A stretch of 63,899 nt of DNA, filler included, from Atractiella rhizophila (taxonomy: Eukaryota): NCBI GenBank assembly GCA_021432655.1. It is 6 parts of 5 records of this genome, joined end to end, with 100 filler letters (N's around TTAATTAATTAA, not from the genome) between each part and the next. Parts side by side here need not be neighbours in the genome. Positions count along the whole stretch, not along the records: positions 1 to 29,388 come from MU271252.1; 5 more parts are not named here. One strand, written 5' to 3'. Position 1 is the first letter of the stretch. Each line of letters starts with the position of its first letter. The notes beneath the pieces were generated by a model. That model was not told the origin of the DNA, did not search any database, and saw only the letters and a program-made list of their open reading frames with translations. Made by a program: the position numbers and the translations under genes. Positions 7,358-63,319 of the stretch are shown piece by piece.

Positions 7358-9539
7358 ATGTCGTGCGTTTTCTTCTGCTCATTCGGCCTTGTAACTGATA
7401 CTATCCGCATTACAGACGAAGTTACGACCGTGCTCTTACTGTCTTCTCGCCTGATGGCCATCTCTTCCAAGTCGAATATGCGGGAGAAGCAGTCAAGAGA
7501 GGAACTTGTGCAGTAGGTGTGAGAGGAAAGGGTGTGGCTGTCCTTGGAGTTGAGAAGAAAAGCACACTTCAACTTCAGGATCCCAGAACTGTTAGGAAAG
7601 TTGTGGTTGTGGACGAGCATGTTGTGCTTGCTTTTGCTGGTAAGTAATCTCCTACGAAGTGAGCAGATGGCATGAGCAGGTCTTTCTATGGTGCATGTGA
7701 TCCAGCTATTGAAGCAGTATGTGCTTGACGGAGGACGTGAGTCTATGCCGGAATGGCATAGGATGTCACAGTTTATTTATTAGCGCTGCTTTGATACCCG
7801 CTCTTCTTCATGACAAAATACTCTCTATTGTGCTCTCGCCAAGCGATGTGGAAGTTATGCAATCGTGCGGCAAAGTTGGGCTCTCTTGGTTCATGCTCAG
7901 ATTTGAGATAATACCATAAAACAAGATGAAACGAGAAGGATCTATGTGTTAAACATACCCATCTGCAGGCTCAGCAAAGGTTCCTAGGATGAGGTGATAA
8001 GACCTTTCGTAAAAGGAGCAAGCCCTATACAAACTTACACAATTAGGCGCTTGCCGTGATACACTGGAATCTTTAGACTCAAAGATGCCTCTTTTTGCTT
8101 AGTATAGTACCCTCTGTATCTTCCTTTCTCACATCATCTTGACGTAGTTTGCGTTTCGTCGTAAACATTCGCTGTCCCAGTGATCACTTTGGTTATTGAT
8201 GATTTACTGCCTGAGAACCGAAGTGGGATTGATGAGAGCGCTGCTTTCCGTCACGGTGAGATAGGAGCATACTTTCTTTCGCACTAGACTCGGTTCCTCT
8301 TGGTCTTTGTAATACCATGCTACGTTTCTTCTTCATGCCTCGTTTCAAGTCGGCATCGTGGACGCGTCAGTCAGCTGCCTCCATTTGTTACTTTTGGCCA
8401 CTACAGCAATTGGTCATGCAATCTGGCTCTACCCCTTTTCTTCTGATCCCTTGATAAGCACTTATTTATCACGGATGGTTTCATCTATTGTCTTGCATGC
8501 ACCTGCTTATTCTATGTATGGCGAGAGCACATGTGCCATTGTGTTTGCGATTTTGACTGTGTGAAAGATCGCCATGCTTTCAACAGTTTCTATTTCGTAG
8601 GAAGGATGCTCATTCCCTGTTCTTCTGTTATTGAATTAACACTATCCGCTCGCATCCTCCCGACGTATAGGTCGGAAAAGGCATGAAATAGGAAACGTCC
8701 ATTTTCCTATCTCTTAGTCAGGATTTCTACACGCTCCCGAAGCCTATAAGTGATATTCTGTCTCATAACCACTTGTGTCCTCCAAATTAAAGATCGGTCC
8801 TCTAATCCCTGTTGCAACTCAGGTCTCACAGCAGATGCTCGTATTCTCATCGACAAGGCACGCATAGAGTGCCAATCCCACCGCCTTACTGTCGAGGACC
8901 CCGTTACTGTTGAATACATCACACGGCACATTGCTGGAATTCAACAAGTTTGCCTTCCTTTGCGTTCTAGAACTTAGCTGATATGCGTCACAGCGATACA
9001 CCCAATCCGGAGGAGTGCGTCCATTCGGTATTTCAACCCTTATCGTTGGTTTCGATCAAGATGGTGGGGACGAGCACGGAAATGTTGTCAAATCCCAACC
9101 GAAAATTTATACCACCGAGCCCTCTGGTATCTACAGCGCATGGAAGGTTGGTGGTATCTATGCCAATGCACCTCGCTTATGTGTGTGGCATAGGCTGTCG
9201 CTATAGGGCGGTCGTCAAAGACCGTGCGGGAGTTCTTGGAGAAAAATTGGAAGGCGGATCTGGAGGCTGAAGAGGCGATCAAGTTGACAATTAAGTCTCT
9301 GCTGGAGGTCGTTCAGACTGGAGCAAAGAACATTGAAGTTGCAGTTGTTGAAGGCTTTGGACAGATCCGAGTACAACTTTATTCACATTGCAAACGATTT
9401 CTGACTGGGTTGTTAGAACCTGACGCTGGAGGAAATCACAAAGGTAGTGCAAGAGATTGAGAAGGAGAAGGAGGCAGAGCAGGAGAGGAAGAGGAATAGA
9501 TTGGCAGCTACTGCTGCAGGCCAAGCGGCCATGCGTTAA
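7358..9539 (+). CDS. PRE6: 20S proteasome subunit alpha4 (PSMA7)
   Basis: [20 protein letters not shown]...LAFAG / [34 protein letters not shown]...[20 protein letters not shown]...[15 protein letters not shown]. 1183-nt intron at 7640-8822. Confidence 0.95.
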
Positions 9540-11891
9540 GAGACCGTGTCCAGAAAGAAAAGTTTGTCCTTTCCAGTCACAGCAGTTTGTTAGCTCACTC
9601 TGAAGTTCTAGAGTTCTATCCAATGCAGAAATGCTATGCTCGCCAGAGTTTTCAAACTTTGACTGCCTTGTTTCTGGATCCTTGTCTCTCGGCCTTGCAG
9701 AAGATGCTGCACTACAGTACCTCCTACTAGTTGCAACCTCGTTGTGACCCAACAGATAATCCGTCCAATTGAAGGGGAGATTGCCATTCTCATTCTAGGG
9801 TGTGGTGAGCTCCATATCACTTGCTGTAAGATTCGTCGAGAATAAACTTGGAGTTTTACGTCGGATGGTACTTCTACCGGCTTTGGATCTGCTTTAGCTT
9901 CCGTCGTCCTCAAGCCAGTAGACTGCCATATCGCACCACATTTAACCGTTCCTGGGGAAAGATGAAAACCCTCCAACAAGAGCAGCTAGGTTTCAACCTT
10001 CTCCCAATGGGCCTCCATTCGCTTGCTGTTCTCCATTGCGGATACTACTGATGTGACGTAGCTTAACATGCTGAAGACCAAATCGTGGGGGATTTGAATA
10101 TTCTTTGAAGTCACCACCTCGAAGGTGTCGACAAGATTCGCAATCCGAGGAGAGGAGTCGCAACGCCAAGTGAAGAGAATGAATGCAGCGGTGTCGCAAG
10201 GGGAAGGGCGGGGTGATTCAATTCATAGCTCGGCGGCGGGCGAACGGGCTTAAAAAGGGAACGTTGGGATTTCGCCTTTCCTTTCTCCTTTCTGACTTCA
10301 GGAGGCAGGAACTCTGGATTGAAGGAGCAGGGTCGTGGAATATGTGATGTTGGGAAGTGAGGTGGTGGTGGTAAAATAAGAGAAAGAAGTCAGGGTCCGC
10401 ATTTTCATTTGTTTTACCCGTGGAGGTAGTAAGCACACTTTATTGCTTGCACGTCTCTTGAGAACTTGCCAAGGTCCGGCGCGCTGGCATTCAATAAATC
10501 AGTGTTTGGTTATTCCTAAAGCATTCAGGAAGTAAAAGCAGTTTCTGCTTGTACTGAGTTGCTGGTGGCCTAAGCAGCACTGTGAGATTGCATGTCGATG
10601 CACTGCACACCTTCAACGCGAGTGCGTCGGACCGAGTACAACTTTATTCACATTGCAAACGATTTCTGACTGGGTTGTTAGAACCTGACGCTGGAGGAAA
10701 TCACGAAGGTAGTGCAAGAGATTGAGAAGGAGAAAGAGGCAGAGCAGGAGAGGAAGAGGAATAGATTGGCAGCTACTGCTGCAGGCCAAGCGGCCATGCG
10801 TTAAGAGACCATGTCCAGAAAGAAAAGTTTGTCCTTTCCAGTCACAGCGGTTTGTTAGCTCACTCTGAAGTTCTAGTGTTCTATCCATTGCAGAAATGCT
10901 ATGCTCGCCAGAGTTCTCAAACTTTGACCGTCTTATTTCTGGAGCCTTGTCTCTCGGCCTTGCAAAAGATGCTGCACTACGATAGTTGCAACCTCGTTGT
11001 TGACCAAGCAGATAATCCGGCCAATTGAATGGAAGATTGGCATTCTCATTCTAGAGTGTGGTGAGCTCCATATCACTTGCTATAAGATTCGTCGAGAATA
11101 AACATTGGAGTTTTACGTCGGATGCTACTTCTACCGGCTTTGGAATCTGCTTCAGCTTCCGTCGTCCTCAAGCGCCAGTAGACTGCCATATCGCACTACA
11201 TTTAACCGTTCCTGGTGAAAGATGAAAACCCTCCAACAAGAGCACCTCGGTTTCAACCTCTCCCAAAGGACCTCCATTCGCTTGCTGTTCTCCATTGCGG
11301 ATACTACTGATGTGACGTAGCTTAACATGCTGAAGACCAAGTCGTGGGGGATTTGAATATTCTTTCAAGTCACCTCCTCGAAGCTGTCGACAAGATTCGC
11401 AATCCGAGGAGAGGAGGCGCAACGCCAAGCGAAGAGAATGAATGCAGCGGGTGTCGCAAGGGGAAGGGCGGGGTGATTCAATTCATAGCTCGGCGGCGGG
11501 CGAACGGGCTTAAAAAGAGAACGTTGGGATTTCGCCTTTCCTTTTTCCTTTCTGACTTCAGGAGGCAGGAACTCTGGATTGAAGGAGCAGGGTCGTGGAA
11601 ATGTGATGTTGGGAAGTGAGGTGGTGGTATGGTAAAATAAGAGAAAGAAGTCAGGGTCCGCATTTTCATTTGTTTCCCCGTGGAGGTAGTAAGCACACTT
11701 TATTGCTTGCAATTCTCTTGAGAACTTGCCAAGGTCCGGCGCGCTGGCATTCAATAAATCAGTGTTTGGTTATCCCTAAAGCATTCAGGAAGTAAAAGCA
11801 GTTTCTGCTTGTACTGAGTTGCTGGTGGCCTAAGCAGCAGTGTGAGATTGCATGTCGATGCACTGCACACCTTCAACGCGAGTGCGTCGGA
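9367..11891. repeat. Tandem near-identical duplication: 9367-10631 and 10632-11891 (last PRE6 exon plus downstream DNA)
   Basis: Both units start CCGAGTACAACTTTATTCAC and end ...AACGCGAGTGCGTCGGA, with scattered substitutions and 1-few nt indels. Confidence 0.95.
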
Positions 11892-19563: not shown

Positions 19564-21516
19564 ATGTCCTGTATGCCCAACTCATGCTGACGGATGTCAC
19601 AGTTACCCAGTGAGAGGTACGCTAGGATTTTGAAAGCGAATGTTGCCATTCATCATTCTCCAATATCAGCAAGCTATCGAGAAAAAAGTATGTTTTCGTT
19701 GTGCAGGCCATGCTACCTATTGACTCCGCTTCCTCAAAGGGCTGGCTCCTTTACTCCTCGTTGGTGCAGTAGTCGCGTAAGTCTGTCTTTGGAATATAGG
19801 AGGACCCTGATCAAACTCAAAGTTATGTCGCACTCACCATCTGGGTACCCTTCCCCTGGCCTTGAATCGTATGAATAGATGATGAATCTTGATCAGAACG
19901 TCTTTACTCAAGGCTACAACGATATCTACACTTCTATTCTGCTTCCCACCTTTTCGCCAGACGATGGAAACACCCAGTGTAATCCAGCGCAAGTGGTTGT
20001 AGGAAGCTCTCTCTATGCAGAGCCAGAAAAGAATTTCCTTTGGACTATCAATTCGGTAAGGGAGAATGCAAGCAGTGCGGTGTATGCTGGATTTGAATAC
20101 AGTGGTTCAATCTTTTTCCTCTTTCTCTCGTCCTCATTGCTCACAATCAATCGGGTTGTCATAGCTGATACTTTGGACTGTGCAATCACTTCGTTAGGCA
20201 TAACTTACAATTATATGTAAGCAACCGGGTAGCCTCAACCAATGGGCTGATCTCAAAGTTGCGTAGGCAACAAGACCTGTGCGCTCATCAGCCATGGTTC
20301 CTTTCCTCCATAACAAGTGATGATCAGGGTTTACGGCGTCTGCGCCGAGTGTTATGTTTCTGCCTCTCCGATTCTAAACCGATCCAACTCTACCATGGCG
20401 AGAGCTCTAGCGAAGCAGACCAGCACCAAGAAGACCGAGACGAAAACTATGCTGTCATTGCAACTGTGTTCTAATTTCGACAATGTGGTGACCAATCTCG
20501 CTACCTGGTCTCAGCAAACCCAGCGATCCCTTCAAAATGCCATTTACGGCTTAGGTACCCTCCTTCAGGACTTCAACTTTCCAAATGGTACCTTCAATGA
20601 GGTTAGGAAGTATAACTTGTTCGAAGGGTTTTATGCTGACAGAAAGGTAGACGAGATGGCCACCGTACGGTGGACCTGGCCTAACTGCAACAAACTTGAC
20701 TGTGGAACCCAGTTCGGTCGTTCTCGCCTCCATGTGGACATCAGGGATCAGATTTTTGCCAACGAATCTGACAGATGACGGTTTTAGAGGTAATATGGAA
20801 TTCGGACCAGATCACGCCGTTTATGTCTTGGATATGGACGAAACTGTCGACTTTCTCGCAGCTTACGATCACACTGCCGATGCCGGTGCTCTGTCGGGTG
20901 AGCATTTATTCTATCTGATTCCATGAGGCTGACGGAAGTCAGGGTGCGTGCTGAAGGTGGCTGGCATTGGAGGATTAAACATCAATGGCCCTGCCACTGC
21001 TGCTCTGCTACCAAAGGAACCGACTTCCATATCTCAACTAAGGAATACGAGCATTGGGATCGCCTCATCAATCATGGATACGGCCATCGGAGATCTGCAT
21101 GGAAAGAGTTTTGCCAACTTGTATCTTTGCACGATCAAGACAAGAGAATGGAAGAGGTGGTTGACGCTGATTGCTTTGGTCCTCGGTACTTCTTTTACTT
21201 CTGTATACTGGGAATTGTGTTGACAATAATATATATAGGGAATAACGCTGCTCTGTTCGGGACATTCTTGTTTGTAACTCGGTATCTAGCAGAGAAGTAC
21301 GACGTCAGAAAATATGGTATGTCTGAAGTCTTAACAAACGTGAATCGGATGCCTCAGGCTCTCCTTTTACCAGGACCCCCAACAGTCGAGATGGATCCTA
21401 CAACTTTCGCGACGACGCCAAGGATTACTAGCAAAGAGCATGCGCCATCTGCTCTTTCACCGTTGATCAGCGAGATGTCATGGGCAGAAGTCCGCAATGC
21501 TAAGATGAGTATTTGA
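19564..21516 (+). CDS. Multi-exon hypothetical transmembrane glycoprotein
   Basis: N-terminal hydrophobic helix (GLAPLLLVGAVV..YVALTIWNVFTQGY), N-x-S/T sites, and a C-terminal TM segment (LIALVLGTSF..GNNAALFGTFLFV). Exon structure approximate. Confidence 0.55.
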
Positions 21517-21911
21517 GCAAATCTCATTAAGTGGCCGTGGTGGTTCACGTGTATCACGAGGTCGAAGTATGGGTGGTATGAGTGAGTGAGGGATTCAACC
21601 AATAATGACGTCAATTCTCGTTTGGTCGTAAAGGGTTTATTATATGTCAAATCAGGACTTAGCTTTGCTTGTTGGTGGTGGGAATCAATTTTTGTGACTT
21701 GCCCTAACGCGTTGAACCACACTCGAACGTCACCTGGTAATTTTAAATAATGTTCGCTTAAGAATGCGCATTAACCACAGTCAGAAACATTGTTTTCATG
21801 AATAACTTATTGCATTGGTTCTACTCTATTTTATCTGTCTCCCTAGTGCAATATCCGTGAGTTCTTTAATGAATTGGTGAGATCGTGAGTGATTATGCCA
21901 CGTAAGAAAAT

Positions 21912-24131
21912 CTAGGAATGGCCCAGTGCTTTGGAAATGACTTGCAAAAGAGCAACAACTTTCTCTCTAGAGGAGACAATTGTCAGCAAGTCAAAATCAA
22001 CGGCAACAAAACATACTCTTCCAGACGCTGCCCAATTATCTGTAGACCAACGGGGGCGTTCTCATACACAGTGGGTTCATCTATACATCGTAAGGTCTAA
22101 CACTTCATTTGTGGCATGAGAACCCACAAAGAGCTTGATTGGTGGCGTCTGCTTCGTTCAGAGGTACGAAGCTGCTGTTCACCACGTCGATGCTCGAATT
22201 AGTTCGAGTGACTGGGAAAACTCCTGTCGCTAGATCCAAGAAAGGCGAGAGATTTTGATAACCGTAGGCGTAGGCAGACCCACGTTCTTTAGCAACGAAA
22301 GAAGTGGCAGGCATGATAAGACCATCGAAATGTCTGCCAGTTGAGGTGAGATTCACAGTGCTATCACAGTTTTTAGTCCTAGCGGAAATTTCGAGCAGGA
22401 GTACATACGCGAGCCATTGCTCTCGATAGTAAGCAGTGTAGTCCCGAAGGTCCGCTACGAGATTCCAACTTTCATAGACAGTGGAACGGTTCTCCGGTGC
22501 AATCCAGGAGAGATAGCTGGAGATGACCGGTAGAAAGGGTTCTCCAGACGCATTGAAAGCACTTTGGACTAGTCATACTTAAACGTGGATCAGAAATCAA
22601 TTGAAGAAAGGCTCACTATCTTGATGAGCGTCAACATGGAACACTCCTTTGGGGCTACCTCCGAAGACGGCACTCGCGTTTGCCCAATTCGGAGGAATCC
22701 AATCAATAACTTCGTGGCCCATGGCTTCTAACTTTGAGCGCACAATCGTCATCGCTCGCTGAATCGGTGGCCAAGGCTGAACGTTCCCATCTCCATTCGC
22801 CCAAGCGAACGAAAGTTTCTTTGGCAACTTTTCCTCCTCCTCACGCCAAGGAATAGGGACTAGCTGAACATCTTCTTTCCACGATCCGGTGTTGACCAGA
22901 GATGACATGACCAGCTTGATGTCCTCAGCACTGCGGCCCATCGGACCACAAGTGGATGTCACTGTGAGGTATCTTTAATATCGCAGACGAAGATAGATTG
23001 TGAGGTCAAGACGAACCGCCCTCCTCTCCGCGAAGACTGTTGGCCATATTTTTGTAGGTACATCGACCAACTTGGAGCTGATATCAGAAGCGGTGTGAAA
23101 CAAGAAGAAGCACGTACCGCTTGGCCTGAGAGCGTACAAACCACCATTGGTGGCCGGAATACGGATCGAGCCACCGATGCTACACGTTATCTTAGAACGC
23201 CAAAATTGACTACCAAATAGAATAAACACTTACTCAGTGCCAAATCCCAAGAATGAGCCTTTGAACCCAACCAATGCACTTTCTCCTCCAGAAGATCCAC
23301 CGGGAGAGAGACGGCGATTGAATGGATTTTTTGTCGCGTTAAAGATGTTGTTCTCGGATTCCCCAGCCTGAAAATGAATCACGTTTAGTGAAGGGCAGGA
23401 TGTATTCCGGAGATAACAAACCATAAGAGAAGCTGGGATGTTCGTCTTAACGTACAAGACCGCTCCAAGGCTCTCCAACGCAGTGACTCCAAGGCTGTCT
23501 TCCGTGGCAGGGTCGTTGGCGTAACTGACATAGCCGATCGTTGCGTCGAATCCCTTGAAGCGGTATTGATCTTTGAGCGAGACAGGGAGGCCGTGAAGAG
23601 GGCCAATCGTCTTGCCAGTTTCCTTAAAGTATTGGTCGAGCTTCTTCGCCGTGGCACGACCACGCTCAAAGAGGATTTCAGTCAGGCTACCGGTAACTTT
23701 AGCTAAGAACTGCAAGAGAAGTAGAAAGAGACAAACGGGTTAAAGAGCTGATGTGCAACAACTGTCCTTTTGATCGTAGCTTCCAGGACTTCTGACGCTG
23801 TCCATTTCCCACATCCTACCATGTAAACTACGTGACTGGCAGTACTTTCCGTGATCTCGAGTTCCTTCTCTGTGAAGAAGCCAGAGGTCCGAGGGAAGGT
23901 TGATACGTCAAGAACGTCGTCTCCTGGCAACAATTCGTTGGGGACAAGATATTCAGTCCCGATCAAAGCCTCTCGGGCTGCAACCTTTCCAGCAACTACC
24001 TCTTGCCAGGTGTTGTTTTCTGCCAGCAGACTAGGAATGAGAGTGTCGCGTCTTTCGAAACCCCAAAGCGGGTTGGCAGACACTGAGAGTATGAAGGCTG
24101 GGAGTAAGAGCGAAGAGAACATAATGGGCAT
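21912..24131 (-). CDS. Amidase-signature family amidase (acetamidase-like) with predicted signal peptide
   Basis: GPLHGLPVSLKD (catalytic Lys), SPGGSSGGE, GTDIGGSIRIPA (nucleophile Ser), C-terminal NAPVGLQIIGQRLEEEKV. N-terminus MPIMFSSLLLPAFILSVSA. Confidence 0.92.
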
Positions 24132-24910
24132 GTTCCTGTTTCCAGTGCAGTTCTTCGCGTTCCCATTTTATATGCGCTGGGATCTTTGCGCTGGAGACGA
24201 TGTGATGATAAGCAAGATATCGGATTTCAAAACTTCGTGTGATAGTGATAGTGATAGAGCTCGCCGAGATGGAAACAAGATGCCGAATTTTGCCATACAC
24301 ATCATTTTGACTCTTGGATATCTGGATACACATCGACAGGGTGGGCGAAGAACGCCGGCGCGCAGGAGGGATCTGAGAGATCTAATGCACCCGAGATTAT
24401 CTATCTCCTCTCATGTATTCCCGTGCATTTGCCAATAGCATCCCCTTCTTCGCCGGATTGATTTGAAACCGTTTCTTGTTCTTTGCCAGGAAACGAGATA
24501 ATCGTTGCACGGTGAGGAAGTTTAAGGCAACGCTAGCAATCCACAACTCGCGCGGGATAACTTTTTAGCGACGCTCTGAGCCCCCGTGGCAGCTCTGATA
24601 GGCGTGTGCACAATTCGACCCGGATTATTATGTTTATGGGTTATGGGCGTAAAGCTGCTCCACTCTTAACAATATATGCTTGGCACAGTTGAACAATCCA
24701 ATGAAGGGAGAATAACGTGACGAGATGCAATATATTTTTCTCGATGTGTATCACAGTAAAGTCTTGCGAAGATAAAGTGTTGCGTGTTGTGGGAAGCTGA
24801 GCGAATTACATACGGCCGTTTCAAGCATGTCCCAAACAGGCACTATATTCAACACCTCCCTCATAATTTCTCAGAATCCGCATGAGTTGGGCTTTCCATC
24901 GCTTGAACTT

Positions 24911-26234
24911 AGTGAACCACCACATTTAGTGAACCTGGGCTGAGTTAGGAAGAAACGTCGAAGTCGATCGCCTCACGAATTACCATACCATTATACCTTG
25001 TGAACCGTCATAAAGTGGTGTATGTCCCTTGCATTCGTGAAAAGAGTAGACGGGAAGGATCTGTTTGAAAATGGATCCTGGGAAAGATAGACTTTCGCGA
25101 TCACCCCTAGGAAGAAACCCAAGAGGGAAAGGCGAACCCGCGAACGTTTTGGTCGACGAAACCGTGAAAGAGTAAAAGCCTCGTCTAGTAGGACGCTTTC
25201 CATCCAACCGGTATTAGGGTACTACCTATTAAAAAATTGGTCAACATCGAGAAAGCCTGTAGGGACAACGATCGTAAGTTATGCCGTGGTGTTGAGGCCA
25301 GAAGAGGAGGGAAAAGCGGGTTGAGAAAAAACGTACCGCAACAACCTCTATAACACCCTTTTTGGAACACCAACCCTAGGACGAACGCAAATATTAGCAG
25401 CGTAGCAAACGAAATCCTAAGTGGAGCAAGAATAAAAAAACACATTTCAGACGTGAGTGATGTCGGGGGGGTCAAGACTACGTCCTGACCAACGCCCATA
25501 CTGTCTCAGTAGCTAGGAGAAAGCGAAGGTTTAGGTTTGGCCCGTTGGCGTTGACACTTCTCCGTCCTCTAGGAGAAGTGTTCGGTTAAGAAGTCGTCGC
25601 GACGTTGACTGTATTAGTAGACACCATAAAACTCGATGTTTGACGCTGCTCTGGTTTTACCGAAGTTACAGTCTTGCCTATATGAAGAACCTGCTCACGA
25701 CAGAGAAAGCGAGTGCAGGCACGCATAGGAAGGGGAGACGGTCGGGCGTTAGGAGTGAAGATTTCCTTGTCCGCCCAAACTGGAGGCGTTGACGATAATA
25801 ACAACGTTAAGATATACAGTGATACTTTCGTGTATTGTGTCCATCCGAAGATGACTACGAAGTGTAGGGAAACGAGTGACGTGGCGGATCGTATAGAACG
25901 AAAGATATTGGAGGAAGGGAGGGAAAAGTGCGAAAGCTGACACGTATGTAACTTGCAGTCTCGCTTTAATTTCCTTCTCACCGTAAGTAAGTCTCCGTGT
26001 TGCTCACCAGGATGCGGCGGGGTAGGTTTGAAGCGTGACCGTAACACGGAATGCTACGATGTAGAGAGCTACCATAGGCCCAAGTACAGAGATGTAACTC
26101 TTCACACCTTTAGCTAGCTCTTCTCCCTCTTAGGTAACCGGATTTCCACACAACACATCGAAGTAGAGATGATCTAGCTAACCGTCTTAAGTATAAGAAC
26201 TTACATCCTGCAGGGAGGACGTGCGTAATATATT
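24911..26234. CDS. Hidden DUF6534-family integral membrane protein, readable only as the complement read left to right; 5'-truncated
   Basis: The complement gives GVLNGMVIWNTWQYFTTYRE / FAQLFFAWRCWRYC / ATDIIICGILSYKLRRDQNGFNVRTDILLGRVLSLSLTS / AGLTSATAIIVAILY / AYLAFYNLLPSLFTLSTVHTLNVR, joined by GT-AG introns. Confidence 0.85.
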
Positions 26235-26749
26235 TGCACTAGGTTTGTGTCATTGAATAAAGGGTTTTGGTTCTCAGATGATGCGCTGTGTTGGCAACAT
26301 GTATGAGGTGATGGGCGTTGCGTAGCGGTACAAAGGACAAGGTAGGTGACGTGAGATGTACGAGGCGTTAACTTGATAAACGCGAAAGGGAGATTCTCGC
26401 TCCAATGGGAGTGAAAGTCGTCCCTAGTACGGGCGTAGAGTAGATATTCTTGGTACTCCGGCTACCTTTCGTCTCCTTCGACAATGTTGCAGGCACTGTA
26501 GTACTGCTTTGGCAAATTGTAATGTTCCTGTAACTCGTCCTATAGAACCGAGTTCCAAATCATAACGGGGTAGGTGCGTTTTACGTATAGTAGGTATGAA
26601 GCGTTTGCCCCTTCGCGTGGAGTTAATAGGGTATCGGTCAGTTGAAGGTTGGTCCAGCATACGAGGTACGTCGAGATTGCGAGACAACTATTTGCACTAA
26701 ATGCAGTTGCAGAGTGATGACGAGGATTAGACCAGCGGCTCAGAAGAAG
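24911..26749. other. 1839-bp segment reversed without complementation (mirror sequence)
   Basis: 26749->26169 read backwards matches 28808-29388 base for base apart from a few SNPs/indels. The reversal restores continuity with ...GCTTGAACTT at 24910. Confidence 0.97.
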
Positions 26750-26774
26750 NNNNNNNNNNNNNNNNNNNNNNNNN

Positions 26775-28036
26775 TCTTCTTTCCACGATCCGGTGTTGAC
26801 CAGAGATGACATGACCAGCTTGATGTCCTCAGCACTGCGGCCCATCGGACCACAAGTGGATGTCACTGTGAGGTATCTTTAATATCGCAGACGAAGATAG
26901 ATTGTGAGGTCAAGACGAACCGCCCTCCTCTCCGCGAAGACTGTTGGCCATATTTTTGTAGGTACATCGACCAACTTGGAGCTGATATCAGAAGCGGTGT
27001 GAAACAAGAAGAAGCACGTACCGCTTGGCCTGAGAGCGTACAAACCACCATTGGTGGCCGGAATACGGATCGAGCCACCGATGCTACACGTTATCTTAGA
27101 ACGCCAAAATTGACTACCAAATAGAATAAACACTTACTCAGTGCCAAATCCCAAGAATGAGCCTTTGAACCCAACCAATGCACTTTCTCCTCCAGAAGAT
27201 CCACCGGGAGAGAGACGGCGATTGAATGGATTTTTTGTCGCGTTAAAGATGTTGTTCTCGGATTCCCCAGCCTGAAAAATGAATCACGTTTAGTGAAGGG
27301 CAGGATGTATTCCGGAGATAACAAACCATAAGAGAAGCTGGGATGTTCGTCTTAACGTACAAGACCGCTCCAAGGCTCTCCAACGCAGTGACTCCAAGGC
27401 TGTCTTCCGTGGCAGGGTCGTTGGCGTAACTGACATAGCCGATCGTTGCGTCGAATCCCTTGAAGCGGTATTGATCTTTGAGCGAGACAGGGAGGCCGTG
27501 AAGAGGGCCAATCGTCTTGCCAGTTTCCTTAAAGTATTGGTCGAGCTTCTTCGCCGTGGCACGACCACGCTCAAAGAGGATTTCAGTCAGGCTGCCGCTA
27601 ACTTTAGCTAAGAACTGCAAGAGAAGTAGAAAGAGACAAACGGGTTAAAGAGCTGATGTGCAACAACGGTCCTTTTGATCGTAGCTTCCAGGACTTCTGA
27701 CGCTGTCCATTTCCCACATCCTACCATGTAAACTACGTGACTGGCAGTACTTTCCGTGATCTCGAGTTCCTTCTCTGTGAAGAAGCCAGAGGTCTGAGGG
27801 AAGGTTGATACGTCAAGAACGTCGTCTCCTGGCAACAATTCATTGGGGACAAGATATTCAGTCCCGATCAAAGCCTCTCGGGCTGCAACCTTTCCAGCAA
27901 CTACCTCTTGCCAGGTGTTGTTTTCTGCCAGCAGACTAGGAATGAGAGTGTCGCGTCTTTCGAAACCCCAAAGCGGGTTGGCAGACGCTGAGAGTATGAA
28001 GGCTGGGAGGAAGAGCGAAGAGAACATAATGGGCAT
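26775..28036 (-). CDS. Second, 3'-truncated copy (likely allele) of the amidase
   Basis: Near-identical to 22871-24131; cut by the 25-N gap at 26750-26774. Confidence 0.85.
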
Positions 28037-29388
28037 GTTCCTGTTTCCAGTGCAGCTCTTCGCGTCCACATTTTATATGCGCTGGGATCGTTGCGCTTGA
28101 GACGATGATGATAAGCAAGATATCGGATTTCAAAACTTCGTGTGATAGTGATAGAGCTCGCCGAGATGGAAACAAGATGCCGAATTTTGCCATACACACA
28201 TCATTTGACTCTTGGATATCTGGATACACATCGACAGGGTGGGCGAAGAACGCCGGCGCGCAGGAGGGATCTGAGAGATCTAATGTACCCGAGATTATCT
28301 ATCTCCTCTCATGTATTCCGGTGCATTTGCCAATAGCATCCCCTTCTTCGCCGGATTGATTTGAAACCGTTTCTTGTTCTTTGCCAAGAAACTAGATAAT
28401 CGTTGCACGGTGAGGAAGTTTAAGGCAACGCTAGCAATCCACAACTCGTGCGGGATAACTTTTTAGCGATGCTCTGAGCCCCCGTGGCAGCTCTGATAGG
28501 CGTGTGCAAAATTTGACCCGGATTATTATGTTTATGGGTTATGGGCGTAAAGCTGCTCCACTCTTAACAATATATGCTTGGCACAGTTGAACAATCCAAT
28601 GAAGTGGAGAATAACGTGACGAGATGCAATATATTTTTGATATGTATCACAGTAAAGTCTTGCGAAGATAAAAGTGTTGCGTGTTGTGGGAAGCTGAGCG
28701 AATTACATACGGCCGTTTCAAGCATGTACCAAACAGGCACTATTTTCAACATCTCCCTCATAATTTCTCAGAATCTGCATGAGTTGGGCTTTCCATCGCT
28801 TGAACTTGACGAAGACTCGGCGAGCAGATAGGGAGCAGTAGTGAGACGTTGACGTAAATGACGTTTATCAACAGAGCGTTAGAGCTGCATGGAGCATACG
28901 ACCTGGTTGGAAGTTGACTGACTATGGGATAAATGAGGTGCGCTTCCCCATTTGCGAAGTATGGATGATATGCATTTTGCGTGGATGGGGTAATACTAAA
29001 CCTTGAGCCAGGATATCCTGCTCAATGTCCTTGTAATGTTAAACGGTTTCGTCATGATGTAAGGGACGTTGTAACGGCTTCCTCTGCTTTCCATCGGCCT
29101 CATGGTTCTTATAGATGAGATGCGGGCATGATCCCTGCTGAAAGTGAGGGTAACCTCGCTCTTAGAGGGAAACACAAATAGTTCAATTGCGGAGCATGTA
29201 GAGTGCAGTGGATGGAACAGGGAACATGGCGATGCGTTGCGGGTTGTGGAGTATGTACAACGGTTGTGTCGCGTAGTAGACTCATTGGTTTTGGGAAATA
29301 AGTTACTGTGTTTGGATCACGTTTATATAATGCGTGCAGAAGGGACGTCCTACATTCAAGAATATGAATTCTGCCAATCGATCTAGTA

Positions 29389-29488
29389 NNNNNNNNNNNN
29401 NNNNNNNNNNNNNNNNNNNNNNNNNNNNNNNNTTAATTAATTAANNNNNNNNNNNNNNNNNNNNNNNNNNNNNNNNNNNNNNNNNNNN
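29389..29488. other. Synthetic 100-bp contig spacer (44 N + TTAATTAATTAA + 44 N); also at 32589-32688, 41322-41421, 60500-60599 and 62796-62895
   Basis: Identical layout five times; the 12-mer places stop codons in all six frames. Confidence 0.97.
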
Positions 29489-32460: not shown

Positions 32461-32938
32461 CACACTGCACATTGAGCGGTCTATGCAGTTTACTCTGTTG
32501 TTACATCTGTGTTCCTCCTTTAGTACTGGAACTATCTCCTTTACTAATCCAACGTGACTACCGTAACATTATATAGTTTATTTTGTTGNNNNNNNNNNNN
32601 NNNNNNNNNNNNNNNNNNNNNNNNNNNNNNNNTTAATTAATTAANNNNNNNNNNNNNNNNNNNNNNNNNNNNNNNNNNNNNNNNNNNNTTGGATCCTCAT
32701 CAGTGAAGGACACTGCCTGATCAGCCAGCAGGAAGTTAAGAGGGTAAGTATTGAATTTCCAGCATGTGTAGGATCCAGACATGAGATTTTGACGATATAA
32801 GAAGGCAAAACAGGGAAGGGACACCGTACAGAAAGAGATCAGGCAAAGGAACACAGAGATTTCTACCCATCAATCGACATATCCTGAACTAGCATAAATC
32901 CGGCCTCGTTACATTTCTTGCCGCCGTGCGACTCAATC

Positions 32939-39662: not shown

Positions 39663-41156
39663 CTCTTACAACGCTTCTCAGACCGTCCAGAAACGACTTG
39701 TACTTGCTGATAGGCTTACAGCCAGCTTTTAAACCTCCAGCGGTAGGCCAGAGATGCTGATTACCTATCCTGAGCGATGTAAAGCTCTGGAGGAAGGATG
39801 CCAAATGCGCGGGAGTTGAACGTATGTCCGACGTACAGACACTACTGCTGTGGTGCAAAAATGGAGCAGGTGCTTTTTGCCTTGTACTTTCGAATTTCGC
39901 TCTGAAGTAACTATTCAGGNNNNNNNNNNNNNNNNNNNNNNNNNNNNNNNNNNNNNNNNNNNNNNNNNNNNNNNNNNNNNNNNNNNNNNNNNNNNNNNNN
40001 NNNNNNNNNNNNNNNNNNNNNNNNNNNNNNNNNNNNNNNNNNNNNNNNNNNNNNNNNNNNNNNNNNNNNNNNNNNNNNNNNNNNNNNNNNNNNNNNNNNN
40101 NNNNNNNNNNNNNNNNNNNNNNNNNNNNNNNNNNNNNNNNNNNNNNNNNNNNNNNNNNNNNNNNNNNNNNNNNNNNNNNNNNNNNNNNNNNNNNNNNNNN
40201 NNNNNNNNNNNNNNNNNNNNNNNNNNNNNNNNNNNNNNNNNNNNNNNNNNNNNNNNNNNNNNNNNNNNNNNNNNNNNNNNNNNNNNNNNNNNNNNNNNNN
40301 NNNNNNNNNNNNNNNNNNNNNNNNNNNNNNNNNNNNNNNNNNNNNNNNNNNNNNNNNNNNNNNNNNNNNNNNNNNNNNNNNNNNNNNNNNNNNNNNNNNN
40401 NNNNNNNNNNNNNNNNNNNNNNNNNNNNNNNNNNNNNNNNNNNNNNNNNNNNNNNNNNNNNNNNNNNNNNNNNNNNNNNNNNNNNNNNNNNNNNNNNNNN
40501 NNNNNNNNNNNNNNNNNNNNNNNNNNNNNNNNNNNNNNNNNNNNNNNNNNNNNNNNNNNNNNNNNNNNNNNNNNNNNNNNNNNNNNNNNNNNNNNNNNNN
40601 NNNNNNNNNCACACGGCCTTTGCCGTTTCAATGCCTTTTTTGGAACGGGACACGGTGTGGCTTTGGGTCGCACCTAGCGGAAGGACCACTCAGAAGCTGT
40701 GATCGAAGGCTCATTCATCCTTGCCGCCGGCTCTTGTTCCCCGTTCTCAACATCTGCTCTGCAAGGCACCGCTCAAACACGCATGCATAGTTCTACTGGA
40801 ACAAGGCACCCGCAGCACAGAACTTAGTGGGATGGCTGTAGATAATCTGACACGAGTTTGAACTCTGAGTTGCAAGTGCTTCGAAGCAAGCATGAGCTCT
40901 GCAATTCCCGTCATGGGGGTTTCCATATTTTCTGGAAAGTCTTCATGTTTTTGAGGAGGACAACCTGATAACAGCCCCAACGGCTCACTAATACTCCAAA
41001 GTTGTTCATGAATTCACTTGACACTCCCGTAACGCTGACAAGTATCCTTGAAAGCCCAAACACTGCACGTGCATGAAAGCAGGCAACCACTTGTATTATT
41101 TTCTCTTCTCTAACGAGAAACAAGCCAATAAAATAATCCAAAGTGAGCACGCACGT

Positions 41157-41321: not shown

Positions 41322-41421
41322 NNNNNNNNNNNNNNNNNNNNNNNNNNNNNNNNNNNNNNNNNNNNTTAATTAATTAANNNNNNNNNNNNNNNNNNNNNNN
41401 NNNNNNNNNNNNNNNNNNNNN

Positions 41422-59669: not shown

Positions 59670-60599
59670 TTGTATAACATCCCATGAATGAGAATCGGTT
59701 ATTGACGGAAAGGTTGTGTCGTTCGTCTTTCTTAAGTTGTTTTACTACATCGCCGTCTTATCCTGTCATAGTATCTGGCATGTAATTCTGTCAATTTTCT
59801 GCCCCTTGAACAAAACGTTTGCAGGACTTCTAGTAGGAAGAAAGGAGCACCTCTAGCAACATTCAACCACCTCCATCGAGCTCGATAGGTTGCGAGGTTC
59901 GATTTCTGGCACCCAGCTTTATTAATTGCTCCTGATCGTTCGTCTCCCCATATCACTTCAGCATCATCCCACCCCGGCTCCACGCTAAACCATAGCGGCC
60001 CACGATTCTCCCAGCTCGCTAAGCCTGAAGCCGCGAAACGACGCTCGATAATTCTACTGTTTACTTCAGACTCAGGGAAGAAGAAGGAAGGGGATTTCAA
60101 ACTGTATGATTGCTGAATGAGACTGTTTCCCCTCTCAAGATGAGGCTGTGGTGCTTTGAGTGAGATCGGGTGAGTATCTTTCTCTTCAACGTTATCTCGT
60201 GCAACAAGCGCCATGCTGCAGGGACATCACACTGTAAACAACTGGACTTGCTTCTGCAGCACTCCAGATACCTCCCTACAGCCTAGAGAAGAATGAGGAG
60301 CCGCACTTTCTTTGGCCTATAGATGCGAAGAGGCGTTGACAGGCGAGTGCCGGTCAGCACTGAAGCCAAGGGCGCTGACTCTGACTCCCACTTTACCTAC
60401 TGCTGCTTTCTTATTCGTTGATTATTCTTCTGAATGGCCGTCGGAAGCGGTCGCGACGAGTTGGGAAGAACTAAGCGACGTTGACATGTGCCTCAGCCTN
60501 NNNNNNNNNNNNNNNNNNNNNNNNNNNNNNNNNNNNNNNNNNNTTAATTAATTAANNNNNNNNNNNNNNNNNNNNNNNNNNNNNNNNNNNNNNNNNNNN

Positions 60600-60802
60600 T
60601 GAGAGCGCTTGAGGGAGGGAGAGACGAAATCGGAGGGGAAGAAGGACATGTCGGTCGGACTGCCTGTTCGTTGAGGAGTGAATCGGTCGCTGAGGCGCCG
60701 TCGCTTGTTGCTTGAGTGTTCGGAGAGGGAATAAGACCGGGAAAGAGAGAGGGAATGAGAGAGATTGGAGGGGGAGGGAGAGGATGGTCCTGGGAAATCC
60801 AT
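60600..60802 (-). CDS. 5' fragment of a Ser-rich protein with NLS-like KRRRL, cut by spacer; duplicated at 61772-61938
   Basis: MDFPGPSSPSPSN...SNKRRRLSDRFTPQR. Confidence 0.45.
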
Positions 60803-62795
60803 GATCGAGTTCGTTTTCGCTGTGCTCTTTGACGCGTCTTTCACTAACGGGTAACGGAACACGCGAAGGTTTCTAGCAAGTCAGTTTGGTACAAGAACAA
60901 GTGGCGTGAATAAACGCTCACAAATATACGGGTAAACCAAGTGAGTCTATAATGAGAGCAGTGACTAGTGAGCTCGAGTGATGGCTGCACTGGCAGCAGC
61001 CAAGCTGTCAAGCGAAATCGACTGCAGCCCCTTTCCGTTGAGCTTTAGTACAACGTCAACAGAGCGCGTGTGCGAATAATTTATGCTTACTTATATCTAG
61101 CTCGCTAATGTATCGACCTTTAGACGTGCCACTAGACTAGTATGTCAAAGCTCCTCTGACGAACAGCTGAGTGTAGAAGTGAAGATAATAATTGGTATAG
61201 CCGAAGCGCAGCAGGCGAAAAGACACCCCGCCACGTGAGTTTGCAGAACGAAACAACTTGACCAAATCCACAAAAGTGTAGGCTGAGGCAGAAGAAGGTA
61301 TTAGCGGGCGAATCGAGGTATCCACTTGAGGTTGTGTGGATCTAATTTTGCATAGAGGATAGTTTTCTGCACTGTATTTTCAACGGTAAGAGTTTCCTTT
61401 TGGCCAGTCAAACGGGATAGTAAACCTATCTGTTATTCTTCAGAACCAAAATGTCCTTCCTTACCCTCTCGCGCCACATAACAAGGCGTTCAGTCCACAC
61501 CACAAACGCTCGAATAACGCGCGATCCCCTCCTCTCCTCCCCAGCCGCCAAACACTACATCCTCCCCGACGGCACACTCTTCATCGTCCGAACACCACCC
61601 AGCGCCGTCCCTCCAACCCTTCCACTCTCCCCTCTCCCGCCACCAGCCTCCAACCCGAACTCCTCCCTCACCCATCCCCTCTCCGCTGCGTCCTCTCCAA
61701 AAATCTCGTCACAAGCAGAAGCAGAAACCTACCTGCCTCCCGTCGTGCGACCGAACAAGAACCCAAAGACAGGGAAGAAGGACATGTCGGTCGGACTGCC
61801 TGTTCGTTGAGGAGTGAATCGGTCGCTGAGACGCCGTCGCTTGTTGCTTGAGTGTTCGGAGAGGGAATAAGACCGGGAAAGAGAGAGGGAAAGAGAAAGA
61901 TTGGAGGTGGAGGGAGAGGATGGTCCTGGGAAATCCATGTTCGAGTTCGTTTTCGCTGTGCTCTTTGACGCGTCTTTCCGAAGGTTTCTAGCAAGTCAGC
62001 TTGGTACAAGAACAAGTGCCGTGAATAAACGCTCACATATATGCGGTTAAACCAAGTGAGTTTGTAATGAGAGCAGTGATAAGTGAGCCCGAGCGATGGC
62101 TGGAGCAGCCAAGCTGTCAAGCGAAATCGACTGAAGCCCCTTTCCCTTCTGTTGAGCTTTGGCACAACGTCAACAGAACGCGTGCGCGAATGATTTATGA
62201 CTTATGCGTACTTATATCTAGCTCGCTGGTATATCGACCTTTCGACGTGTCTCAAGGGCCACTAGACTAGTATGCCAAAGCTCCTCTGACGAACAGCTGA
62301 GTGTGGGAAGTGAAGATAACAAGTGGTATAGCCGAAGCGCAGCATGCGAAAAAGGACACACCCGCCAAGTGAGCTGCAAAACGAATCAACTTGACAGTCT
62401 AGGAAGAGGCAGAAGAGGGTATTAGTGGGCGAAATCCAGGCTATCTACTCGAGTTGTGTGGATATAATTTTGCACAGGGGGACAGTTTCAGCACTGTGTT
62501 TTTCAACTGTAAGAGTTCCCTTTGGTCGTCAAACTGGTTAGCATACCTACCCATTATTCTTCAGAACCAAAATGTCCTTCTTTACCCTCTCGCGCCACAT
62601 AACAAGGCGTTCAGTCCACACCACGAACGCTCGAATAACGCGCGATCCTCTCCTCTCCTCCCCAGCCGCCAAACACTACATCCTCCCCGACGGCACACTC
62701 TTCATCGTCCGAACACCACCCAGCGCCGTCCCTCCTACCCTCCCACTCTCCCCTCTCCCGCCACCCGCCTCCAATCCAAACTCCTCCCTCACCCA
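60636..62795. repeat. Near-identical duplication: 60636-61674 and 61772-62795
   Basis: Both copies start GGGAAGAAGGACATGTCGGTCGG and run through the mL58 5' exon; more divergent in the intergenic part. Confidence 0.92.
61451..61810 (+). CDS. Mitochondrial ribosomal protein mL58 (MRP-L20 family), N-terminal part only; second partial copy at 62572-62795
   Basis: Mitochondrial presequence-like MSFLTLSRHITRRSVHT; LPDGTLFIVRTPPSA and YLPPVVR resemble the fungal MRP-L20 N-terminus. The expected C-terminal helices are absent after the duplication junction. Confidence 0.6.
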   Translation: MSFLTLSRHITRRSVHTTNARITRDPLLSSPAAKHYILPDGTLFIVRTPPSAVPPTLPLSPLPPPASNPNSSLTHPLSAASSPKISSQAEAETYLPPVVRPNKNPKTGKKDMSVGLPVR

Positions 62796-63319
62796 NNNNN
62801 NNNNNNNNNNNNNNNNNNNNNNNNNNNNNNNNNNNNNNNTTAATTAATTAANNNNNNNNNNNNNNNNNNNNNNNNNNNNNNNNNNNNNNNNNNNNGAACT
62901 GGCCATTTGGACCATCTTTAATACCAACAGTGATGACTAGATGTCTCTGGAAATATTTGAAACACCCACAATTCAAGACTGGCTTAGATGCCATTTCCAA
63001 TGTTGTCTGTGACAGTAAAAGATCGGCTACTCAGATTGTGGAGAGTCGCAGGACATGGACTGTCGCGTCATAAGTAACTCGATGATTGACAGTCCTTCTG
63101 AGAACTGAACCGATGAACGACTGACGTTAGCTCAGGTCCCGCAGGTTTGTCAGCAGAGACGGGTGACGGGGACGGCGAGAGTAATCTGCAAGCGCTGACA
63201 GCAGGCTCGGAAATGTCCTGGCGGGGGGCGGGGAGGGCTTAAATGCCTGAACAGAGCCCCTGTATGCTGGCTTACTCAGAGGTAGCTTAGAGGCGTACTG
63301 GCACAGTCTGAAAATACAT

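Follow-up and report, generated by a model that had tools for sequence, protein, structure and literature searches.

Positions 24911-26749 of the 63,899-nt window analysed here (the window being the whole stretch of DNA under study), which lie in scaffold MU271252.1 of Atractiella rhizophila, hold 1839 bp of DNA that has been written reversed without being complemented, and this mirror segment does not correspond to any real feature of the organism. Very probably it is a data-handling artefact: at a gap left unclosed between two alleles that had not been collapsed, a string was reversed by error. The contigs derived from sequencing reads run opposite to the segment as written, such that it is to be ascribed to an error in the data and not to biology. 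The value of the observation is therefore one of data quality: it serves as a warning and offers a test case for screening the orientation of assemblies. In practical terms, 1.84 kb of the scaffold as written does not exist in the organism, and any ORFs, motifs, primers or alignments taken from it are spurious; the 5' region of an amidase gene is counted twice in the assembly; and a simple end-to-end flip of the segment recovers 1258 bp of real sequence, extending the locus past the end of the allele B contig.

The window as a whole is a chain of small scaffolds. Five identical 100-bp linkers, each of the form 44 N + TTAATTAATTAA + 44 N and located at 29389-29488, 32589-32688, 41322-41421, 60500-60599 and 62796-62895, carry stops in all six frames and connect pieces that are 1.0 to 29.4 kb long; adjacency across a linker is therefore without meaning. 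A gap of 690 N lies at 39920-40609. Positions 1-29388 make up one scaffold, composed of a long contig that extends to 24910, the 1839-bp insert, 25 N and a contig of 2614 bp. The features of this scaffold which bear on the mirror segment are collected in Table 1.

Table 1. Features at and around the mirror segment, in window coordinates; allele assignments are putative.
Feature	Position	Strand	Basis
5' exons of the amidase gene in its complete copy (putative allele A)	22597-24131	-	Pfam PF01425
Copy A, end of the long contig (putative allele A)	22871-24910		97.95% identity to 26775-28807
Mirror segment; true first base 26749, true last base 24911	24911-26749		Reverse-only alignment, orientation test, read contig
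25-N placeholder between the presumably appended string and the next contig	26750-26774		Only 25-N run in the window
Copy B, first 2033 bp of the 2614-bp contig (putative allele B)	26775-28807		Identity to copy A
Continuation of putative allele B in true orientation; counterpart of 26169-26749 (581 bp)	28808-29388		96.74% over 582 columns
Linker of 100 bp, 44 N + TTAATTAATTAA + 44 N, at the scaffold end	29389-29488		One of five

An earlier note on this DNA had claimed that copy A tracks copy B and then departs from it abruptly at 24911. The two copies are 97.95% identical over 2045 columns, with 25 substitutions and 17 gap columns, and the junction is exact. Beyond the junction, the sequence of the written segment relates to the continuation of copy B in one orientation only. 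Local alignment of the plain reversal of 24911-26749 against 28808-29388, which is the check that the note had proposed, gives a score of 523, the 579 columns comprising 561 identities and 2 gap columns, whereas the segment as written, its complement and its reverse complement score 10, 13 and 11, respectively, which is the level of chance. The mirror match that had been described over 581 bp (26749->26169 against 28808->29388) thus holds, and only as a plain reversal, the identity being 96.7-96.9% over 579-582 columns. Likewise, when the reversed window is compared with the window by blastn, a single mirror pair is returned, in both directions (96.7%, 582 columns, E = 0.0), and a match to the complement alone is not found by blastn within the 63,899 nt. 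It had further been proposed that a flip without complementing restores a continuous allele, and copy A followed by the flipped segment is indeed colinear with copy B followed by its continuation, at 97.68% identity over 2627 columns and with the junction unbroken. At its other end the segment stops, as had also been noted, exactly at the run of 25 N.

The nature of this match can be taken somewhat further. The differences between the flipped 26749->26169 and allele B, which amount to 17 substitutions and 2 gap columns in 582 columns (96.74%), are mostly substitutions, and so they fit a difference between alleles rather than raw long-read error. The match is not one of low complexity, since Tandem Repeats Finder reports no tandem repeat in 24911-26749 or in 28808-29388; over 24000-29388 it lists a single entry, a hexamer run of 19 bp at 24239-24257. 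The far end of the flipped segment has no overlap with the next piece (29489 onwards), and none of the 1242 17-mers of the flipped 24911-26168 is present anywhere in the window. Lower or upper case as a mark of inserted bases is absent, the sequence being all in one case.

A counterpart exists for only 581 of the 1839 bp, and therefore a test of orientation was chosen that does not need one. It makes use of the fact that real DNA is symmetric between its strands but not under reversal. On both strands of the window outside the segment, Markov models of order 1-3 were trained, and the statistic was taken as LL(as written) - LL(reversed). The asymmetry is already apparent from dinucleotide ratios, TA/AT and CA/AC being 0.65 and 1.26 in the rest of the window, as against 1.34 and 0.76 inside the segment. 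Across the three orders, the LL difference of the segment is -32.5 to -34.6, compared with means of +33.3 to +38.9 for 27 other chunks of 1839 bp, of which none is at or below 0; the corresponding z values are -6.2 to -6.6, and the null quoted for the value of -32.5 is +33.3 +/- 10.6 (27 chunks). The 1258 bp without a counterpart (24911-26168) behave in the same manner when taken by themselves, with differences of -23.9 to -27.3 against null means of +23.9 to +27.6, no null chunk out of 41 at or below 0, and z values of -7.3 to -8.0. In other words, the values of the segment lie close to the null means taken with opposite sign, as is to be expected of fully reversed native DNA, and all 1839 bp, including the 1258 bp that lack a counterpart, are genuine DNA written backwards.

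The same statistic in a sliding scan of 600 bp takes values of -9 to -14 in windows which lie wholly or almost wholly inside the segment. The 379 scan windows outside it have a mean of +12.1 and a minimum of -2.5, with 6 below 0, five of these slightly negative windows being at 60601-62550; the scan of the window shows no further reversed block. An orientation scan of this type detects reversed strings even where no second copy is to hand, and as such it could serve to screen whole assemblies, should a pipeline bug have given rise to more such inserts; this class of error escapes ordinary BLAST-based checks. Because the whole 1839 bp is reversed DNA, the ORFs inside the written segment are spurious, as the earlier note had maintained, and a Pfam search with the 6 ORFs of at least 70 aa that lie wholly inside it gives no significant match (best E = 0.059, below the curated cut-off). 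The length of the longest open frame does not discriminate, at 155 aa as written and 133 aa flipped, with a median of 171.5 in 26 other chunks.

The junction at 24910/24911 can be compared with DNA from other sequencing. Two public runs, X1 and X2, which derive from one sample (S1) of one study and are available as contigs, were found by a search with 21500-26749; they contain 0.45 and 0.44 of the sampled words, respectively, and S1 is possibly not the individual that was assembled. Record 16 of X2 (359 nt) aligns to 24640-24910 with 0 substitutions and 2 one-letter gaps, after which it continues in an overhang of 88 letters. Of this overhang 30 letters were compared, and all 30 agree with the reverse of 26749->26720, whereas 26 of the 30 agree with copy B and only 5 of the 30 with 24911-24940 as written. 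The 30-mer itself is absent from both strands of the window. The overhang beyond 24910 is seen in this one contig, and in X1 the sole listed contig that reaches 24910 (record 7) stops there with no overhang. As record 16 crosses 24910 into the flipped string, the written junction is contradicted, and in the DNA of sample S1 allele A continues beyond 24910 into the flipped string. The contigs of the two runs cover 21500-24999 (20 of 30 bins), and the depth of 0 over 25000-26749 (the other 10 bins) is not counted as support. The overhang, taken with the reversal test on the whole segment, upholds the note's proposal of a software strand-handling error or an in-silico edit; read support for the junction as written, which the note had named as the finding that would overturn it, is the opposite of what the contig gives.

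The duplicated sequence belongs to an amidase gene. The Pfam family PF01425 (Amidase) is matched on the minus strand at 23230-23715 (E 1.9e-37, profile positions 15-150) and at 22597-22962 (E 2.4e-12, profile positions 187-288), with 129.8 and 47.1 bits, respectively, against a curated cut-off of 27, which places the gene in this family. The domain is split across ORFs in different frames, from which short introns, and with them an intron-bearing eukaryotic gene, can be inferred. The gene begins with a start codon near 24131 and extends leftwards beyond 22871. Copy B, on the other hand, begins in the middle of the gene, at the first base after the 25 N, and carries just the 5' part, truncated by the gap; the duplicated sequence therefore borders an assembly gap, with one of its copies starting at the very edge.

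The contigs of X1 and X2 inform on the relationship between the two copies. They differ from copy A at 17 letters, of which 15 are the letter of copy B, and record 16 of X2 has the letter of copy A at each of the 5 A/B substitution sites in 24640-24910; thus both sets of letters are present together in sample S1. Record 2 of X1 (2623 nt) runs unbroken over 21639-24267, across the boundary at 22871; of the 12 sites in 22871-24267 where a substitution separates A from B, it has the letter of copy B at 10 (11 of 12 with both runs taken together), from which it follows that B-type sequence shares the left neighbour of A. This record and the start of copy B at the gap edge argue for two uncollapsed alleles over a tandem duplication. 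The comparison as a whole points to copy A with the flipped segment as one allele and copy B, the 2.6-kb contig, as the other. The amidase region is most likely present as a single copy in a eukaryote that is heterozygous (diploid or dikaryotic), its two alleles having been left unmerged.

The contigs contain other differences from the scaffold. At 22997 and 23197 the letters of the X1 and X2 contigs agree with neither A nor B; left of the duplication, 8 substitutions fall within 22095-22855; in both runs 82 bases (21528-21609) are replaced by 38 other letters; and X2 has a 10-letter insertion behind 21681. The variation at 21527-21610, 21681, 22095-22855, 22997 and 23197 is further allelic or strain variation that is absent from the scaffold. 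Record 7 of X1 (415 nt) lies on 24491-24910 with 12 substitutions and 13 gap letters relative to the window, several of its letters matching neither A nor B, and ends exactly at 24910. This record may be a diverged repeat copy whose similarity ends at 24910, in which case the end of that similarity could explain why a primary contig would stop at this base.

A reversed-string error at a false gap would have arisen in the following manner. The long contig, carrying allele A, is inferred to have ended at 24910, the sole hint of which is the exact end of record 7 of X1 at this base, suggestive of a branch in the assembly graph and of a primary contig end. The 2.6-kb contig of allele B (26775-29388) would have been scaffolded behind it, though the two truly overlap. 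In a gap-extension or gap-filling step, the long contig would next have been lengthened at this end by 1839 bp whose allele-A sequence was correct but whose order was wrong, such that the base belonging beside 24910 was placed beside the Ns instead. This could have come about if half of a reverse-complement operation was applied, given that a read of opposite orientation which is complemented without being reversed amounts to a reversal without complement. Alternatively, the extension may have been grown base by base outwards and written in the order appropriate to the opposite contig end. Since even a correctly oriented extension could not meet the start of copy B, the gap would have stayed open, with a minimal placeholder of 25 N left in it. 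A phrase search of the literature gave no description of this class of error among the matches listed, going by their titles, which is a weak negative.

As to the software, PBJelly may leave exactly 25 N after extension, which would be the size of the placeholder here. In the excerpts of its publication that concern gaps, a gap is defined as 25 or more N, the residual gap here being of 25 N; flanks are extended into gaps, 'overfilled' gaps are described at wrongly scaffolded negative gaps, and any FASTA input is accepted (PMC3504050). A default of 25 for the gap size is given in an excerpt of a further paper (PMC6240028), and excerpts of two others describe how gap extension into wrongly scaffolded 'negative' gaps leads to duplicated, unclosed gaps and spurious duplication (PMC9635638, PMC7757076). 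The present case resembles the overfilled or extended gaps and the uncollapsed haplotype duplications of these excerpts (PMC3504050, PMC9635638, PMC7757076) in that an unclosed gap is bordered by duplicated sequence, one side of it is lengthened where an overlap belonged, the placeholder is minimal and the duplicates differ at an allelic level of ~2-3%. It is unlike the gap-filled drafts in these excerpts in that the sequence added there is correctly oriented, whereas here it is reversed without complementing, an arrangement absent from the excerpts. Moreover, the indel-type errors of a long-read consensus are not what is seen: the added sequence agrees at 30 of 30 letters with a short-read-derived contig, and it differs from allele B by 17 substitutions as against 2 gap columns. 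The perfect agreement with a short-read contig makes the segment a poor fit to uncorrected PacBio consensus, the usual input of PBJelly; as any FASTA is accepted, however, PBJelly is compatible with the segment despite the lack of indel-type errors. That PBJelly specifically was responsible is a guess, and rather a doubtful one.

Several other accounts of the segment have to be weighed. Natural long mirror repeats are reported to originate from simple tandem repeats, many of which are homopurine-homopyrimidine (PMC12214015). With these repeats and with H-DNA motifs the segment shares its formal symmetry, one arm being the other read backwards on the same strand; unlike them, it consists over 581 bp of complex sequence, its arms are ~2 kb apart, and the read contigs do not enter the written segment. 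A natural mirror repeat or H-DNA motif is rejected, as no simple tandem repeats were found by Tandem Repeats Finder in either arm. A biological inversion has in its favour that the segment appears turned round relative to the allele, but the reverse-complement test fails (a score of 11 against the 523 of the plain reversal) and an inversion is rejected as well. The thought that the assembled individual truly carries a 1.84-kb non-complementary mirror copy, made by some unknown mechanism, would demand a wholly unknown way of copying DNA and is improbable in the extreme: nothing positive speaks for it, beyond the fact that the runs possibly come from an individual other than the assembled one, whereas the read contigs of sample S1 show the unreversed continuation with allele-A letters, the segment is free of tandem repeats and it ends exactly at an assembly gap. 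We know of no polymerase or recombination chemistry that makes a reversed, uncomplemented copy. Seligmann is said to have hypothesised, in J Theor Biol in 2012, a 3'-to-5' 'invertase' polymerisation of non-complementary RNA, which is, to our knowledge, the only proposal in print for a biological synthesis of reversed, non-complementary sequence. That proposal concerns hypothetical mitochondrial RNAs, unlike the kilobase of genomic DNA found here, its mechanism is not established, and nothing in the segment calls for it.

The remaining alternatives accept that the orientation is in error and place the error elsewhere. A reversal made outside the assembly pipeline, by a manual or scripted edit, a slip of format conversion or a deliberate in-silico change of sequence, would leave much the same string, and the time at which the reversal took place is not readable from the sequence alone; an exact look-up in a public protein collection found 0 of 5 mirror ORFs and likewise 0 of 4 control ORFs. 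The unit that is reversed, however, spans from a point which is unremarkable in allele B (28807/28808) to the exact edge of the 25-N gap, and a unit that ends at a gap edge has the shape of a flank extension and not of an arbitrary edit. Furthermore, the contig of the more divergent relative of 24491-24910 (record 7 of X1) ends exactly at 24910, and such an edit is considered very unlikely. It is also unlikely that the 5' region of the amidase gene is truly duplicated in tandem as copies A and B, with the error confined to the orientation of 24911-26749. Two other near-tandem pairs in the window, 9367-10631 / 10632-11891 (95%) and 60636-61674 / 61772-62795 (86.6%), lend this some weight, as they would make such duplications a common feature of the organism or of the assembly. 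It is opposed by the fact that copy B starts within a gene, right at the edge of a gap, and by record 2 of X1, which spans the 22871 boundary with B letters at 10 of 12 sites; contigs can, however, switch between alleles, and it is on this account that a tandem duplication keeps its small share of probability. The reading that we prefer is thus that a string was reversed in error at a gap left open between two alleles.

The two near-tandem pairs are worth a brief description in their own right. The copies 9367-10631 and 10632-11891 follow one another head to tail as an exact tandem pair without an intervening gap; their identity is 95.0% over 1273 columns, and no ORF of at least 100 aa is common to both copies; the pair could be a real tandem repeat or a duplication of alleles that stems from gap closing. 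The copies 60636-61674 and 61772-62795 lie within a piece of 2196 bp between two linkers (60600-62795), are 86.6% identical, and have the same ORF start repeated at 61451 and 62572, the second copy reaching the end of the piece. The orientation statistic is near zero along this piece, which suggests that its composition is unusual.
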